A DNA stretch of 64,000 nucleotides from an uncultured delta proteobacterium (GTDB lineage: Bacteria > Myxococcota_A > Polyangia > Polyangiales > Polyangiaceae). Shown piece by piece: positions 3,267 through 54,473 of this stretch. The stretch spans positions 192,001-256,000 of the forward strand of contig CAVOKF010000007.1 in assembly GCA_963696385.1 (NCBI GenBank), in the 5' to 3' direction. The position numbers and the translations under genes are program-made. The first letter of the stretch is position 1. The number at the start of each line of letters is the position of its first letter. The notes under the pieces are model-generated. The model saw only the letters and a program-made list of their open reading frames with translations. It was not told where the DNA came from and did no database searches.

Positions 3267-3734
3267 CTAGGCCACCTTCAGGTACTCGTAGGCGATCGTC
3301 AGCTCCTCCATCGCGACGTCCGTGCCCTTGGCGTTCAAAGGCCCGATCGAGTGCTTGATCGGCCGGGCGTTGCTGAGCGTCCAGGTCAGCACCGCGGAGG
3401 TCTGGTCCGACTCCGTGTTCAACGTGATCGTCACGTTGTAGACGGCCGAGGAGTCGACCGAACCGGTGCGGACCGCGTCAAACCAAGTGTACAGAGAAAG
3501 CATGCCCACGACGCCGCGTTTCAGGGTGACGTCCGTGACCTTGTTCAGGCCCGTGATCTTCTGAACGCGCAGCAAGGGATCGTTGCCGTTGCGGTACTCG
3601 TGGACCGCTACCTCCTGGGCCAGGGCGCTGCACTCCTGAAAGCCCCCGAGGGGCTGCGTGGCATCCACGCCGGAGAGGTTGAGATCGACGGTAAAGTTGA
3701 ATTGCGAGTACGGGGTCGCTCGTTGCAAGGCCAT
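3267..3734 (-). CDS. Phage tail tube protein (gp19-like), eCIS
   Basis: PYSQFNF, GGFQECSAL, EYRNGND, KITGLNKVTDVTLKRG, LNAKGTDVAMEELTIAYE. Confidence 0.95.
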   Translation of the reverse strand: MALQRATPYSQFNFTVDLNLSGVDATQPLGGFQECSALAQEVAVHEYRNGNDPLLRVQKITGLNKVTDVTLKRGVVGMLSLYTWFDAVRTGSVDSSAVYNVTITLNTESDQTSAVLTWTLSNARPIKHSIGPLNAKGTDVAMEELTIAYEYLKVA

Positions 3735-3786
3735 GGTGGGCTCCTTCCCTCAAGCTGTCACGGGGTCCGCTCTTCCGTGTCGGTGG

Positions 3787-49471: not shown

Positions 49472-50155
49472 TCACGGAATGGATGCGATGGCCGAGCGGA
49501 CCGTGTGGCCGAAGAGGCTTTCCGGCCAGCGATCGCCGAACGCCCGCGCCCGGTCGCGCGCTTCGCGATAGCGGCCCGCGCGCACCAGAGCCTGGATTTC
49601 GAGCGCGTCACGCTCTTCGGCCAAGATCGCTTTGGGAAATCGGGAACGGTGCGCCGCAAGGTTCTCGAGCGCGCGGTCGGGGATCTCGGCGACGAGCGCC
49701 GCGCGCGCGTCGTCGAGCAAGCGCCGTTCGGCCTCGAGCTGCGATTGCTCTTGTGGCCCCGGCGGGCCTGCGCTGGCCGGGCCGGTCATCGCGGGGTTCG
49801 GCACCATGGCGGTCGCGCTCGCGACTTCGGTCGGCGCCGGCCCGGCACTCTGGACCGCTGTCGGCGCCGGCGGTTCGACGTAGACAACCCGCGGCGGAGG
49901 CGCCCGCTCGAGCACACCGGCGAGCGCGGCGCCGGCCATCCCGCCCAAAGCGAACGTCGCCACCGGCCAAGCGATGCCGCCGCGCCATCCTCGGACCCGG
50001 CCACCGTGCCCGCCGCCGCCTCCGGCGCGCCGAATCTCGGGGATCGCGATTTCGAGCTTCGCCCGAACGCGGGCTTGCGCCCCGGGCGGAGGTGAGCCGT
50101 CTGCCGAGAGCTCTTCGAGCTCGAATGGCCTAAGGGGCGGGATGGAATCAGCCAC
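49472..50155 (-). CDS. Putative anti-sigma factor (TM + Pro linker + TPR-like C-terminus)
   Basis: Lies directly after the sigma-factor 3' end; LEAERRLLDDARAAL..H..RFP..LAEER pattern. Confidence 0.72.
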   Translation of the reverse strand: MADSIPPLRPFELEELSADGSPPPGAQARVRAKLEIAIPEIRRAGGGGGHGGRVRGWRGGIAWPVATFALGGMAGAALAGVLERAPPPRVVYVEPPAPTAVQSAGPAPTEVASATAMVPNPAMTGPASAGPPGPQEQSQLEAERRLLDDARAALVAEIPDRALENLAAHRSRFPKAILAEERDALEIQALVRAGRYREARDRARAFGDRWPESLFGHTVRSAIASIP

Positions 50156-50244
50156 GATGCACCTCTCGCGCGGCGAGCGTCTTGACCGCAAAGGCAAGCT
50201 GTTCGCGGGCCAGACGCAACCGCGAATAGGCCGTGTTCAGGGGA
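50148..50244 (-). pseudogene. 3' fragment of the ECF sigma factor (region 4.2)
   Basis: PLNTAYSRLRLAREQLAFAVKTLAAREVHRG* continues the ORF from 54473 exactly once the IS and one TSD copy are removed. Confidence 0.93.
50239..50244 (+). repeat. IS target-site duplication AGGGGA (left copy; right copy 54010-54015)
   Basis: Identical hexamer immediately outside both IS ends. Confidence 0.92.
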
Positions 50245-50352
50245 TGTAGACGGACGCGTAAATCCGCGGGAAAGGCGACGTGGAAGCAGTGCGCGGCCGA
50301 TCCCGGCGCTACCTCCTGAGGAAGGCGGCGCCGGGCAGCGGACGAGAATGGC

Positions 50353-50646
50353 TCAGCGAGGGAGGGGCTTGTCGTGGTGGTTGTGGTCACGCCCGTCGAC
50401 GACGTTCTGCTCGGCGAGTCGATATTGGCGGATATGCCTGCGTAAAGCGCGCATGGCATTGAGGAGGTCGCGAGTGGGGGGATGATTGGCGCCGCCGCGT
50501 GTCGACGAGGAGGGGTCGGGGCCGATGGCGAGAAAGCGGCGAGCCGCGATGAGTGCAGCGTCGAGCACGAAGAGCGGACCGAGTTCGGGCGCCAAGACGA
50601 TGTCCCACTCGGAGGGCGCAACGAGCCGCTGGCGCGGCGGCGTCAC
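50353..50646 (-). CDS. IS accessory ORF downstream of istB (97 aa, helical)
   Basis: GTGA overlap with the istB stop; APELGPLFVLDAALIAARRFL...LRRHIRQYR. Confidence 0.65.
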   Translation of the reverse strand: MTPPRQRLVAPSEWDIVLAPELGPLFVLDAALIAARRFLAIGPDPSSSTRGGANHPPTRDLLNAMRALRRHIRQYRLAEQNVVDGRDHNHHDKPLPR

Positions 50647-51428
50647 ACGCGCCTCCGGGCGGAGGCGCCTCGCGAGCGGGGCCTGGGTTGCGGAGGCGGT
50701 GGGGAGTTGCCCGGCTTTTGCCGGTAGGAGTCGGCATCGATGTCGATGGTGTGCAGATGCTGGGTGAAGCGATCGATGAGAGCGACGAGGCAGGCGGCGC
50801 CGGGGAATACGCCCCCCCATTCCTTGAAGGCCAAGTTGGTCGAGATGATGGTGGAGGCTCGTTCATGGCGCCGGCTGATGATCTGGAAGAAGAGGTCGAC
50901 GGCGCGCTTGTCTACGGGCACATATCCAAGTTCGTCGCATACGAGAAGATCGACATTGGTATAGCGCTTCATGCGTCGCTCGACGGCGGGCAGCGACTCC
51001 TGTTTCAAGAGATCGGCGAGCGCCGAAACGACCGGGGTAAAGCAGACGGTCATGCCGGCGCTGAGCGCGGCGAGGCATACGTTCTGCGCAAGCATGGTCT
51101 TACCCACACCGCTTGGGCCGCGAAAAAGGACGTTCTCGCGGCGCTCCACGAAGCCCAAGCCGAGGACATTCTCGCATAGGGCGCGGTCGATCTTGCGCGG
51201 ATGGCTCCAGTCGAAACGGTCCATCGTCGTGTGCGCCCCCACCGTCGCCATCTTGGTGCGGGTGGCGAGATTGCGTGCTTCACGCTGCCGGCGCTCCATT
51301 TCGACCAGCAGCTCGACGACCTGCACGTGCGAGAGGCGGTTGGCGGTCGCGTGCGACAGCAGTGCCTCGAGCTGCTCGCGCGACGCGCAGAAGCCGATGG
51401 CCCGGAGCTCGTCGACGACGTCGCTCAC
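50643..51428 (-). CDS. istB: IS21 helper AAA+ ATPase IstB
   Basis: GPSGVGKT, LLVCDELGY, STNLAFKEW, ALIDR, SYR. Confidence 0.96.
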   Translation of the reverse strand: MSDVVDELRAIGFCASREQLEALLSHATANRLSHVQVVELLVEMERRQREARNLATRTKMATVGAHTTMDRFDWSHPRKIDRALCENVLGLGFVERRENVLFRGPSGVGKTMLAQNVCLAALSAGMTVCFTPVVSALADLLKQESLPAVERRMKRYTNVDLLVCDELGYVPVDKRAVDLFFQIISRRHERASTIISTNLAFKEWGGVFPGAACLVALIDRFTQHLHTIDIDADSYRQKPGNSPPPPQPRPRSRGASARRRV

Positions 51429-52906
51429 GACTCACCCCGCTTTCGGTCGTAGGAACCGAGGTCGTGGGGCACCACGATGGCGTCGACGACGTGCGCGCCG
51501 AGCACGATATCCACCGGCATGGGCCGGTCGGTTCGCTGCCGCTCTTGCTCGCAGAGAAGGGCCAGCGCGCCGATGTCGTGCGTGCCGCGCTCGCCCATGA
51601 CGCGCACGGCGTAACCGAAGATCTCCAGCCCGTAGAGTGTGAAGAGCTTGCGCGCATGCCCGGTCATGAAGTTGATGTTTCGTCCCTGCTCGACCCAGCG
51701 TTCGTAAAGCACCGAGAGCTCGGGCACGGCGCCGAGCAGCTGGTCGCGTATCGTGATGGCCTCGGCTCGTGGCCGCCCCTCGCAGAGGGCGCGGCGATGC
51801 GCGGGGTCGTCGATGCGCTGACCGCGTCCCCACGAGCGTCGGTGGCGCGCCACCTCTTTCTCCCCATCGAGAAGCCGCACGTGATCGTCGTCCGCCACGA
51901 GCGTCAGCGTCGCGCTCGCGTACTTCGGCGGCGCCGAGTAGCGGTTGGTCCCGAGCCGTACGCTCGCCGTCTTGTCGACGGCGACAGGCAACACCAGGTC
52001 CGCCGTCGGCATCGGATTGGGCAGCGGCATCAGGCGCTCCTTCTCCTCGGCGAAGACCTCGCCCACGCTGCGGCTGGCGAGGGTTGGGTGGCGACGCGTC
52101 ATCACGACCGATTCGATGTGGCGCCGCAGGCCGAGGTTTCCTATCTCCAGACTCGGGATCGAACGGCCCGCGAAGAATCCTTCTTTGAGCTCGCGTATGG
52201 CTCTTTCGACTCCGCCCTTGTCTTCGGGCGTCCGCACGCGCGCGAGCACTGGTTTGACGCGAAGCTGTCCGGCGAGCTCGATGATCCCGGAGTGAAGCCG
52301 CGCGGCGCGACCATGGCGCTCGATCACGACGATCTTGGGGTTGTCGAAGAGAAGCTGCCGTGGCACGCCACCGAAGAAGCTCAGCGCGCGCAGGATCGAG
52401 CGCCGGAGCGATTCCGCCGTCATATCGAGCACCAACTCCGCGTACCGCATTCGCGAATACGCCAAAAGCATCACGAAGACCCAGAGCGCCCGCATCCCTC
52501 CCATGACGGAGAGCTGCCCCACGTGACCCCAGTCCACTTGCCCTTGCTCGCCCGGCAGGCGCTCGCAGACCAGGTACGCCTTGCTCGCCGCGCGCGGACG
52601 GATGCCTTTGACGAAGCGCTCGACGAGCTTTGCGCTGCCCCGAAACCCGCGCTCGGCGATCATCGTGCGCAGCCGCGTCGCGCGCAGCCGTGGATACCTC
52701 TCGATCTGCTCGAGGATGAAGCCCTTGTACGCGTCGAGCTTGCTCGGCCGAGGCTCGCGCGCGGGCTGTCCAGTGGCGTCCTGGGCGAGCACGCGCGTGA
52801 CGACGTCGTGGTGCACCCCCAGCTCGGCGGCCACCGTGCCTTCGGGCCACTTCTCGGCCTGCACGAGCCGAAGGATCTCGCTCTCGCACTCTTTGCTGAC
52901 TGTCAT
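51425..52906 (-). CDS. istA: IS21 transposase IstA
   Basis: HTH N-terminus, PSKLDAYK, DDE residues in QVDWG / FDNPK / KGGVE, TNRYSAP. Confidence 0.96.
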   Translation of the reverse strand: MTVSKECESEILRLVQAEKWPEGTVAAELGVHHDVVTRVLAQDATGQPAREPRPSKLDAYKGFILEQIERYPRLRATRLRTMIAERGFRGSAKLVERFVKGIRPRAASKAYLVCERLPGEQGQVDWGHVGQLSVMGGMRALWVFVMLLAYSRMRYAELVLDMTAESLRRSILRALSFFGGVPRQLLFDNPKIVVIERHGRAARLHSGIIELAGQLRVKPVLARVRTPEDKGGVERAIRELKEGFFAGRSIPSLEIGNLGLRRHIESVVMTRRHPTLASRSVGEVFAEEKERLMPLPNPMPTADLVLPVAVDKTASVRLGTNRYSAPPKYASATLTLVADDDHVRLLDGEKEVARHRRSWGRGQRIDDPAHRRALCEGRPRAEAITIRDQLLGAVPELSVLYERWVEQGRNINFMTGHARKLFTLYGLEIFGYAVRVMGERGTHDIGALALLCEQERQRTDRPMPVDIVLGAHVVDAIVVPHDLGSYDRKRGES

Positions 52907-53277
52907 GGCGACACCCCCTGCAAGCAGACCTGCCGCAGATCACCGAAGCAGCCCAATCCCCCCAGACGGCCCGCGCGACGGCGATGCGCCGGACCGCGCA
53001 GCATCACCTCCACGTCGAAATGCAGATTGCGCACGCCGAAGCCCAGCGCGTCCTCCAGCCGCAATGCAGACATAGATTCCTCGGTATCCGCACAGAGAAC
53101 AACGCAGAGCGGGCGCTGCTGCCAGAGCGCCAGCCCCTCGAGCAGCGTGGAGGCCGCCCGCGGATGCGCCGACGCCGATGGGCCCAACACCGCCCGCATC
53201 CGTTCCTCGCGCCCCTCCATCATCAGGATCCGCGTCGCCTCGCGCCGGGGATCCATCGTCACCGTCCATCGATTCAT
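52903..53277 (-). CDS. IS accessory ORF upstream of istA
   Basis: ATGA-coupled to istA; MNRWTVTMDP..TRILMMEG..HPRAASTLLEGLALW..PLCVVLCAD. Confidence 0.65.
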   Translation of the reverse strand: MNRWTVTMDPRREATRILMMEGREERMRAVLGPSASAHPRAASTLLEGLALWQQRPLCVVLCADTEESMSALRLEDALGFGVRNLHFDVEVMLRGPAHRRRAGRLGGLGCFGDLRQVCLQGVSP

Positions 53278-53702
53278 CGGTCCTGCTCCTGGCCGCCTCG
53301 GTCGCCGCCTCCGGGTTGGAGGCGAGCGCCGCGCCGCGCGAGCGCACAACACGCGAATCGGCACTCCCACCAGAAGGGGGATCCGTTACGACCTGCCCAT
53401 CCGTTCCCGGCGCGACCGGCGCCACCACGCCCCGCTGCCGAGCCTTGCGGCCTCGCCGGCCCGGATGTGCTTGGCGAAACCAGTGCTGCCGGTCGCGGTT
53501 GTTCTGCCGACCCTCCACCGTCGTCGCTTCCAACCGCCGCGCCGTGCGACAGAATCCGCGCGCGCCCTACCCCTTGGCACGCCTCGCTGCAGTAGCGGCG
53601 CTCGCCGAACCGATCGCACCTGGCGCACGCGTAGAACCCCTCGCCGCAGGCCCCACAGCACGCAAAACGAAGCGGCTGCTCGACTCCCTCATGCTCGTGC
53701 AC
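52940..53702 (-). CDS. IS accessory Zn-finger protein, probably frameshifted at about 53550
   Basis: N-terminal CGAC..CARCDR..RYCSEAC; a +1 shift continues RTARRLE..GRQNNRDRQ..VTDPPS..RCSLCG. Confidence 0.55.
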
Positions 53703-54009
53703 GCGTCCATTCCACGGACGCGTGATGCGCACGGGTTGACCCGGCGCTTGCTCTCAGGCACCGTCCGCGGCGTCCAGAGCCGCGTCCGCGTCTGGGCCGA
53801 AGGCTCGGGGTTGCCGCCCTGGGCCTTCACTCTTTTGTGCGTCCATTTCGTCGCGCCTTCTACGCCAGCACGCGCGCCGACACGAGCGGGGACCCTTCCC
53901 GCCGGCTCTCACGCAAGAGGATGGCCTTTGCGACCCGTCCTGAACGAATGCTCGGGCGTCCTACGCCCTGACGCGTCCCGGATCAGGCGGTTCTTCGCGT
54001 CGCTCTACA

Positions 54010-54473
54010 AGGGGAATCTCCAACGTCTCGGCAATCTCGCCGACAGGCACACCGTCGACGTAGTGCAGGACGAGCACGGCCCGACGCTCCAGATCCATCG
54101 CATCGAGCGCGGCACGCACGAGCTGGCCGCGCTCGGCTTCGACCATCCGCTCATCGACGGGCTGGGTCGGGTCTCGGGCTTCGACGTGCACGCCGTTCAG
54201 TTCGAGGCGGTGTCGCGCCAGGCGTCGGTAATCGGAGGCCAGGCGGTAGGCGAACCCGAAGAGCCAAGGACGGATTGGCCGCGTCGGGTCGTAGTCGGCA
54301 AGGCGCGCATGCACGCGGAGAAACACGTCGTGACAGAGGTCTTCGATCTCGGCTTCTCGCACGCCGAGTCGGCGCAACGTGCTCCATACGTAGCCGAACT
54401 GCTCGTCGAAGATGGCGCCCAAGTCGGGCCTTGCCGGCTGCGCGCTCGCGGACACTTCCACCATTGGGTCCAC
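54010..54473 (-). pseudogene. ECF sigma-70 factor, 5' part, interrupted by IS21
   Basis: FGYVWSTLRRLGV, EDLCHDVFL, RPWLFGFA, RAVLVLH, EIAETLEIPL then IS sequence. Confidence 0.93.

Follow-up and report, generated by a model that had tools for sequence, protein, structure and literature searches.

A recently active IS21-family element of Polyangiaceae with conserved accessory genes and an overprinted gene pair

A stretch of 64,000 nt from an uncultured delta proteobacterium of the family Polyangiaceae (contig CAVOKF010000007.1 of assembly GCA_963696385.1), referred to below as the window and used for all positions unless stated otherwise, harbors an insertion sequence (IS) of the IS21 family at 50245-54009 on the minus strand, 3,765 bp in length. 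Its genes all lie on the minus strand in the order ORF1 (open reading frame 1, the zinc-finger gene), ORF2, istA, istB and ORF5. With a probability of about 0.72, we read it as a recently active copy of an IS21 element belonging to a clade endowed with accessory genes; this figure covers the anatomy of the element, its mobility, the dual coding of ORF1 and ORF2 and the membership of the accessory genes in the transposition module, and it excludes each specific protein role. The whole 3.77-kb unit moves as one piece, generating 6-bp duplications of its target, and ORF1, ORF2 and ORF5 are conserved coding genes with fixed positions in the operon.

The ends of the element were read from the sequence and from the copies in its own genome. 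The left terminal inverted repeat, TGTAGAGCGACGCGAAGAACC, occupies 53989-54009 and the right one (reverse complement TGTAGACGGACGCGTAAATCC) 50245-50265; both ends begin with TGT and the two repeats match at 16 of 21 positions. The element is flanked by the target-site duplication AGGGGA (plus strand) at 54010-54015, on the left side in element orientation, and at 50239-50244, on the right side, and target duplications in the IS21 family are usually 4-8 bp long. A scan of the window yielded 272 inverted pairs, and the 25 longest did not include these short imperfect repeats. A search of the host genome (6.9 Mb, 8 contigs) with the element gave 8 matches, which comprise three full-length copies (3763-3765 bp, that of the window included), one split copy interrupted by an insert of about 1 kb, a 637-nt fragment and two weak matches. 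These copies share their start and end bases, with the same right terminus in all those that reach that end, which fixes the boundaries independently, and a 6-bp duplication is present in four of the four copies that retain both ends and differs for each of them (tcccct, aggtgg, ggtgag and ggcgct). A five-gene element of 3.77 kb bounded by inverted repeats and a target duplication, as the sequence-only reading of this DNA had proposed, is thereby borne out. The three full copies differ from one another at just 11 positions and, therefore, the element moved recently. No motif is common to the four insertion sites in the genome, which makes a sequence-specific choice of target unlikely. Motifs of the GACGNG type were noticed by eye (no statistics) at a spacing of approximately 17-23 nt in the first 90 nt or so of the left end and twice in the right end; they might correspond to the sub-terminal repeats, several per end, to which IS21 transposases bind. 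At least 8 other studies contain a near-identical element in their DNA runs (peat, wetland and soil), and contigs from RNA libraries of two studies match the element at about 97% identity, over its full length in one run and over the greater part in another; since DNA carry-over is possible in these libraries, they cannot show transcription, strand, or start or end points, and the stretches left uncovered in two of them (X16 and X17) carry no meaning.

The core of the element is that of its family. istA (51425-52906) encodes a DDE transposase of 493 aa that matches NF033546 (210.1 bits for a cut-off of 160) and the Pfam domains PF00665 (rve) and PF22483 (Mu-transposase C-terminal); its residues D125, D188 and E234 are invariant in 30 relatives and presumably form the catalytic triad. 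istB (50643-51428) follows directly with a GTGA overlap and encodes an AAA+ helper ATPase of 261 aa (PF01695, E 5e-53; NF038214, 203.9 bits for a cut-off of 200). The two cut-offs are those of the curated NCBI equivalog models for IS21. Both genes are intact in the window. IstA, IstB, inverted repeats starting with TG and a short target duplication place the element in the IS21 family, whose known members (IS21, IS5376, IS100) likewise combine a DDE transposase with an overlapping AAA+ helper gene, TG-type inverted repeats and a short duplication. The difference lies in gene content. In the literature searched, IS21 elements are described as two-gene systems and the presence of only two ORFs is given as a family trait (PMC10122671), whereas the window element has five conserved genes in 3.77 kb and the wider clade four in 3.25-3.4 kb.

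The first of the additional genes, ORF1 (52940-53732), encodes an arginine-rich zinc-ribbon protein of 263 aa when intact, and it is frameshifted in the window copy. As read there, the zinc-finger ORF spans 53732-53274 and has 152 aa, but a search with it returned just three proteins, of 242-263 aa, which match only its first third and carry on in the frame of a 197-aa ORF of the window at 53533-52940. The frames are separated by an extra T at 53554 that is peculiar to the window copy; the alignment shows that the two other full copies of the same genome lack it, and a peat-metagenome DNA contig (X6, with 1 other differing letter and 1 gap over 3,510 nt) as well as RNA-library contigs of two studies (X15 and X16) are one base short at this position. 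The length of 263 aa for the intact protein follows from this T being private to the window copy, and because the T lengthens a run of T residues, it may be an assembly error. Among the residues that never vary in 24 aligned ORF1 proteins are C26, C29, C48, C52, C211 and C214; C36 is conserved in about 90% and position 39 is C, H or D. This arrangement suggests two zinc sites, of which one would link the N-terminal domain to the tail. The N-terminal domain (residues 20-100) shows a ratio of nonsynonymous to synonymous substitution rates (dN/dS) of 0.09-0.35 in 12 of the 13 pairs with an estimate, and values of 0.48 and 0.62 in two diverged pairs. The predicted model has a low overall confidence (predicted local distance difference test, pLDDT, 55.7). 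Residues 20-100 are confidently modeled as beta hairpins and a pair of long helices, confidence is moderate (54-76) in the part of the tail that surrounds the C-x2-C motif, and the remainder is disordered. Four ORF1 proteins compared with Pfam at E up to 1 matched no family other than one chance-level hit to MC1.

ORF1 and ORF2 are a case of true dual coding in which both frames are selected. Intact ORF1 runs over almost all of ORF2 in another frame, so that ORF2 is nested in the 3' half of ORF1 and about 330 nt are shared. In 25 of the 27 loci with a complete ORF2, the ORF1 frame is open from upstream and stops 34-70 nt before the ORF2 stop; the two exceptions are a degraded copy with an early stop and a frameshifted copy with no stop. 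Over the 27 loci (8,013 nt), the ORF1 frame within ORF2 contains 1 stop against 35.9 expected from synonymous-codon shuffles, compared with 102 against 85.5 in the third frame. As a control, the same frame holds 91 stops against 194.2 expected in istA and 35 against 74.0 in istB, a rate of about 3.1 stops per kb which lowers the expectation for ORF2 to about 17 (ratio-corrected) or about 25 (at the empirical rate); the significance of these counts is overstated insofar as the loci are related and hence not independent, although third positions are largely saturated at these distances. The second line of evidence comes from 34 ORF2 sequences dereplicated at 95%, all 34 of which have T as the third base both in codon 59 (Val) and in codon 62 (Cys, Ser or Val), compared with a mean T frequency at third positions (T3) of 11.5%. 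These two fixed T's produce both cysteines of the C-x2-C motif in the ORF1 frame (TGT TCT CTG TGC, 53090-53101, over ORF2 codons 59-63). The openness of the ORF1 frame together with the fixation of T at the two ORF2 third positions establishes the dual coding. Additionally, the ORF1 tail, C-x2-C-G...F/W-V/L-R...PLRR, is a genuine protein motif since it is also present in ORF1 proteins of proteobacterial relatives that have no ORF2; in Myxococcota it is overlain by the middle of ORF2. The synonymous rate (dS) of ORF2 is below those of istA and istB in one clade (e.g., 0.13 vs. 0.47 and 0.57; 0.20 vs. 0.32 and 0.40), not in every pair. Selection on the part of ORF1 that overlaps ORF2 bears mainly on its openness and on the C-x2-C tail motif.

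ORF2 (52903-53277, 124 aa) has 133 relatives with 49-96% identity, nearly all of 105-133 aa and none with a Pfam domain, and its profile, searched against 1.84 billion representatives, matched 637 representatives of 50%-identity clusters at E up to 0.001 (299 at E up to 1e-10), nearly all of them stand-alone proteins of about 120 aa. An IstA match lies directly downstream in 33 of 37 ORF2 loci from species-representative genomes (mostly metagenome-assembled genomes of Polyangiaceae/Polyangia, plus Polyangium fumosum DSM 14668), the other four being truncated or deleted copies, and IstA identity at these loci ranges from 96% to 47% over the full length, with one partial match at 41%. In the phylum, 17 of 401 sampled genomes carry ORF2, in 15 of 254 genera, and when 18 loci from the other genomes were searched with profiles, 14 showed ORF1 followed by ORF2 and then istA, with ORF2 at only 30-46% identity. 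Labels outside Myxococcota (Gemmatimonadota, Actinomycetes, Acidobacteriota, Elusimicrobiota, Planctomycetota, Gaiellaceae) belong to contigs of 2.6-4.1 kb and are not taken as host range. By the method of Nei and Gojobori, in unsaturated pairs and among the pairs listed, dN/dS is 0.09-0.5 for ORF2, 0.23-0.79 for ORF5, 0.11-0.26 for istA and 0.06-0.23 for istB. In 99 ORF2 sequences there are 12 invariant columns and the substitutions are protein-like. A solitary ORF2 of 49% identity was observed at one locus (L028, 4504-5172) next to a truncated ORF1; the 5 kb downstream of it contain no istA, and this locus probably represents a decayed copy.

An AlphaFold2 model of ORF2 built from the 99 sequences (pLDDT 78.5, predicted template-modeling score, pTM, 0.75) has the topology b1-b2-b3-a1-b4-a2-b5-a3, for which an RNase H-like fold is predicted. 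Foldseek gave weak matches (E about 4e-4, template-modeling score about 0.45) to NTPDase, RuvC, YqgF and ribosomal protein S11. VIA-align gave Z scores from 9.7 to 8.0 to chains of ASKHA kinases, YqgF, RuvX, TerL nuclease and resolvases, including 9.7 for a pantothenate kinase domain, 9.0 for YqgF (7w89, root-mean-square deviation 3.2 over 112 residues) and for a TerL nuclease, 8.6 for RuvX (7ess) and 8.5 for a poxvirus resolvase (5e6f) and a Cas12 RuvC domain, although a Z of 8-10 barely exceeds the background stated for this tool. The RNase H-like fold is common to all these VIA-align matches. ORF2 shares a predicted topology with the RNase H-like nucleases of the RuvC, YqgF (RuvX) and poxvirus resolvase groups, whereas identity to them is 7-13%, there is no profile match and the first carboxylate is not conserved. 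The acidic residues of ORF2 occupy places that correspond to those in such enzymes: D or E is found at position 47 in 99 of 99 sequences (E47 is invariant), at position 64 in 88 and at position 113 in 98. Judging from these residues, nuclease activity is possible in the clade of the window and would not be a constant of the family. No Pfam or NCBIfam family matches ORF2, and its profile found no sequence of a solved structure at E up to 1. Aligned with IstA by hhalign, ORF2 gave a probability of 0.2%, which offers no indication that it is a copy of the DDE core.

ORF5 (50353-50646), a small gene of 97 aa, starts with a GTG that overlaps the istB stop (GTGA). Of the 26 proteins that passed the ORF5 search one is spurious and 25 are relatives of 85-110 aa, whose alignment shows 19 invariant columns and a conserved core of about 80 aa followed by a variable acidic tail; ORF5 gave no usable match in the ESM Atlas. 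In metagenomes, ORF5 stands after an IstB match in 28 of 31 loci, the remaining three being two internal-deletion derivatives of the element and one fragment at the end of a locus, and all five genes are found in order in 11 of the 31, with IstA identities of 55-95%. The ORF5 profile had no match in more distant myxobacterial elements, which measure 3.25-3.3 kb and end about 130 nt after istB. Concerning its C-terminus, 16 of 44 distinct sequences of the ORF5 family end in F after acidic residues, while the window protein ends in DKPLPR and its clade in KPLPR; for this reason, a mimic of the SSB C-terminal tail, which would require an acidic stretch followed by P-F or an aromatic residue, was rejected for the window ORF5. 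Both deletion derivatives retain ORF5: one (L048, 4703-5405) joins element positions 1-291 to 3353-3765, leaving a unit of about 0.7 kb in which both ends and the leader are preserved and ORF5 is intact, and the other (L049, 2364-3576) keeps istA fragments and ORF5.

In the window copy the four junctions between ORFs are all 4-bp overlaps, in gene order ATGA, ATGA, GTGA and GTGA. The overlap of the ORF2 stop with the istA start is ATGA in 15 of 16 loci and GTGA in the remaining one, and ORF2 has its own ATG preceded in many loci by a GGAG-like (Shine-Dalgarno-like) sequence 8-10 nt upstream. The ORF1 stop lies 30-66 nt upstream of the istA ATG (TGA in 21 of 25 loci, TAA in 3, TAG in 1). The frames of ORF1 and istA are identical in essentially all loci, a consequence of the one-base lead of ORF1 over ORF2 combined with the ATGA that the end of ORF2 shares with the istA start. 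Since ORF2 ends on the istA ATG and ORF1 30-66 nt ahead of it, synthesis of IstA is probably tied to the translation and termination of both genes. Upstream of the operon, a GC-rich stem-loop (GAAGGCC...GGCCTTC; 53798-53829, 97 nt before the ORF1 start) is conserved across lineages; it is located 94-122 nt upstream of ORF1 in most myxobacterial lineages (leaders L015-L060), with 9 consensus pairs in 15 sequences and compensatory changes in 5 of these pairs, and it was not found in three proteobacterial loci. It might shield the operon from transcription that enters from outside, or act as a site for regulation or binding.

By gene content and order, the clade of IS21 elements with accessory genes reaches beyond Myxococcota into Proteobacteria. 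On plasmids of Aromatoleum aromaticum EbN1, Alicycliphilus denitrificans BC, Burkholderia thailandensis and Methylotuvimicrobium alcaliphilum, as in the window, a homolog of ORF1 (zinc ribbon, basic helices and C-x2-C tail) precedes istA and a small ORF overlaps the istB stop, in a unit bounded by inverted repeats (3,386 bp); unlike the window, these relatives have no ORF2, a short ORF1 linker and no leader hairpin. Matches to the ORF1 profile directly upstream of istA scored 62-74 bits (Aromatoleum 74, Burkholderia thailandensis 70, Methylotuvimicrobium 63), and tblastn found an ORF1-like ORF in 18 plasmid records (Burkholderia, Paraburkholderia, Caballeronia, Cupriavidus, Rhizobium and others), mostly without an annotated feature. 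The stretch common to the Aromatoleum and Alicycliphilus copies is exactly 3,386 bp long, has TGT ends and contains ORF1, istA, istB and the small ORF, whereas the flanks differ; this four-ORF unit is therefore itself an insertion sequence. In 72,556 plasmids no IstA exceeds 39.8% identity; ORF2 had no match in the same plasmids, nor did the ORF2 and ORF5 profiles in the Aromatoleum locus. ORF1 is probably the oldest of the accessory genes, being common to the proteobacterial relatives. The small ORF of these elements has 63-71 aa, overlaps the istB stop by 4 bp and ends in F in 3 of 3 cases (DFNDEIPF, FDDPSF and RDPPF), so that the ends DEIPF, DDPSF or RDPPF stand against KPLPR in the window ORF5. 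As a lead only, these C-termini may resemble the C-terminal hexapeptide of SSB, given as DDDIPF in PMC5872125. In the gene tables, which are themselves stated to be incomplete, the ORF1-like genes (L097, 2086-2514; L098, 3474-3935; L099, 3330-3941) are mostly unannotated, and in Methylotuvimicrobium only the last 63 codons of the gene are annotated, as a hypothetical protein.

Small accessory ORFs and additional zinc-ribbon proteins are known from other transposition systems. IS66-family elements with three ORFs (tnpA-tnpB-tnpC) couple small accessory ORFs to the transposase gene by 4-bp overlaps, as the window element does; they differ in belonging to another transposase family and in carrying their accessory genes side by side and not overprinted, and ORF1, ORF2 and ORF5 had no Pfam match to the IS66 accessory families. 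Modules of the Tn7/Tn5053 type comprise a DDE transposase, an AAA+ regulator and a zinc-ribbon target selector (TniQ/TnsD), and the window element likewise joins an additional zinc-ribbon protein to a DDE transposase and an AAA+ partner. The difference is that ORF1 has neither a TniQ match nor a structural match at Z 5 or more and that the insertion sites have no motif; a role of ORF1 as a TniQ/TnsD target selector was rejected on account of the lack of a TniQ match in Pfam and of a motif at the four sites. A literature search on extra, accessory or passenger ORFs in IS21, in myxobacteria and in IS408/IS1162, with ISfinder outside its coverage, found no description, and we found no printed account of conserved extra genes in an IS21 element.

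The sequence-only reading had taken the accessory ORFs as integral components (for regulation or target selection) and not as passengers, and had asked for their conservation among homologous elements and their dN/dS to be checked. With this done, all three are integral to the element, conserved and under purifying selection, and their order relative to istA and istB is kept across deep divergence. Its details were partly amended: the zinc-finger ORF and the 124-aa ORF upstream are both real genes, but the former is frameshifted in this copy and the two are overprinted instead of consecutive; the 4-bp overlaps hold for every junction of the window copy, but that between istB and ORF5 only in the closest relatives; and the downstream 97-aa ORF is a conserved gene, but one restricted to a single subclade. 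Several observations weigh against our reading. Although its ORF1 is broken, the window copy is flanked by a clean target duplication, which implies that ORF1 is dispensable in cis, or broke after insertion, or that the T is an assembly error. Beyond the closest relatives, ORF5 starts tens of bases past the istB match, and by its distribution it is limited to one subclade, as an addition there, with weak similarity to the proteobacterial small ORFs (hidden Markov model E 0.008-0.28, 3 sequences). ORF1, ORF2 and ORF5 belong to no Pfam, NCBIfam, PADLOC or PHROGs family. The structure search with ORF1 had no match at Z 5 or more (best Z 4.4, helical-hairpin matches only), the acidic set of ORF2 is incomplete (position 9 is D or E in just 71 of 99), no profile similarity links ORF2 and IstA (hhalign probability 0.2%), and the overlap part of ORF1 has a dN/dS of 1 or more in its own frame.

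Some of these points are what would be expected if the extra ORFs were passenger cargo serving the host or the maintenance of the element (e.g., addiction or defence) with no part in transposition: none of the three has a known transposition-related domain, ORF5 occurs in one subclade with a gap after istB in most relatives, and an internal-deletion derivative (L048) retains ORF5 intact between both ends. Cargo usually varies between related elements, however, while here ORF1 and ORF2 stay joined to the istA start as IstA identity falls from 96% to about 30-40%, ORF1 extends into Proteobacteria and the ATGA overlap of ORF2 and istA recurs in 15 of 16 loci; the accessory genes have no PADLOC or PHROGs match, and in the loci examined none of the three was seen apart from IS21 sequence. 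We consider the cargo explanation unlikely. Still less probable is that only one of the two overlapping frames is real, the other being a by-product that results from high G+C content together with the conservation of its partner. Long spurious ORFs are indeed common in this DNA of 70% G+C, the probability that the ORF1 frame stays open in shuffles is 0.02-0.52 per locus, istA and istB also have about half of the predicted stops in the same frame, and the overlap part of ORF1, besides its high dN/dS, is mostly predicted to be disordered. Such a by-product would leave unexplained the single stop where 35.9 (or about 17 or 25 after correction) are expected in the pooled loci, even if their relatedness overstates the joint probability, as well as the conserved position of the ORF1 stop, the two T's fixed in 34 of 34 sequences against a T3 of 11.5%, the tail motif in proteobacterial proteins with no ORF2, and the 12 invariant columns and confident predicted fold of ORF2.

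A further possibility, also improbable to about the same degree, is that ORF1 is an optional N-terminal extension of the transposase, a zinc-ribbon-IstA fusion made by stop readthrough, as IS21 and others make two forms of transposase. It would fit the in-frame arrangement of ORF1 and istA, with one stop (two in a few loci) and 30-66 in-frame nucleotides between them, and the predominance of TGA (21 of 25 loci). The shared frame, on the other hand, follows from the geometry of the overlaps, TAA (3) and TAG (1) stops also occur, a fused open frame was seen in none of about 70 loci, and in Aromatoleum ORF1 is open past the istA start in another frame (to 2514, with the istA ATG at 2501).

For the individual proteins of the accessory-gene element the suggestions are graded. 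The odds are about even that ORF1 serves the element as an arginine-rich cofactor or regulator binding zinc and nucleic acids, judging from its conserved cysteines and composition. ORF2, through its predicted fold and fixed place before istA, may be an RNase H-fold partner that is made along with IstA; an action on IstA or next to it, at DNA ends or branches, is put forward tentatively, and that ORF2 is itself a nuclease appears doubtful. ORF5 could be a small adaptor acting with IstB or with host replication or repair proteins, a suggestion somewhat weaker than that of ORF2 acting at DNA ends. Taken all together these would describe a wide and previously undescribed IS21 clade with extra subunits, in which ORF1 would be an ancient two-zinc cofactor; ORF2 would be an RNase H-like IstA partner overprinted in the myxobacterial lineage, its middle written over the ancestral ORF1 tail motif, and working with IstA, e.g., on the non-transferred strand or on branched intermediates; and the post-istB proteins, by an acidic C-terminus like the SSB tail, would recruit host proteins, bringing replication-restart or repair proteins to the strand-transfer complex. 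As a whole, this joint proposal is unlikely to hold.

A few observations concern the surroundings and the other copies of the element. In the window, it interrupts a gene for an extracytoplasmic function (ECF) sigma factor within region 4 (53961-54473 and 50148-50244, minus strand); the Sigma70_r2 and Sigma70_r4_2 matches end at the insertion point, Sigma70_r4_2 breaking at profile position 39 of 54, and the C-terminal part of the protein (...NTAYSRLRLAREQL...) resumes beyond the other end of the element. A second insertion of 1 nt private to the window copy, a G at 50304, falls in the non-coding stretch after ORF5 and may be a real mutation or an assembly error. The split copy (L005, contig C5 of the same genome) contains within its istA an insert of about 1,002 bp (499-1500) with perfect 12-bp terminal inverted repeats (TTCAGCGGCGCC), an 8-bp duplication (AGGACGCC) and no convincing long ORF, which looks like a non-autonomous element of another family. 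The 637-nt fragment (L006, C2:36430-37056) is a left end with 98% identity and 2 gaps that ends within ORF1.

IS21 serves as a structural model of how a dedicated AAA+ ATPase controls a transposase, and the conserved extra genes of a clade found in Myxococcota and Proteobacteria would point to unknown cofactors in regulation, DNA processing or links to host factors, one of which, ORF1, is mostly absent from the existing annotations examined. The pair ORF1/ORF2 provides a clean bacterial case of long conserved dual coding, over about 330 nt and down to about 30% identity of ORF2, and the relatives that have no second gene make it useful for studying the origin of overlapping genes. The element may thus be relevant both to specialists in transposition and to researchers of overlapping genes.

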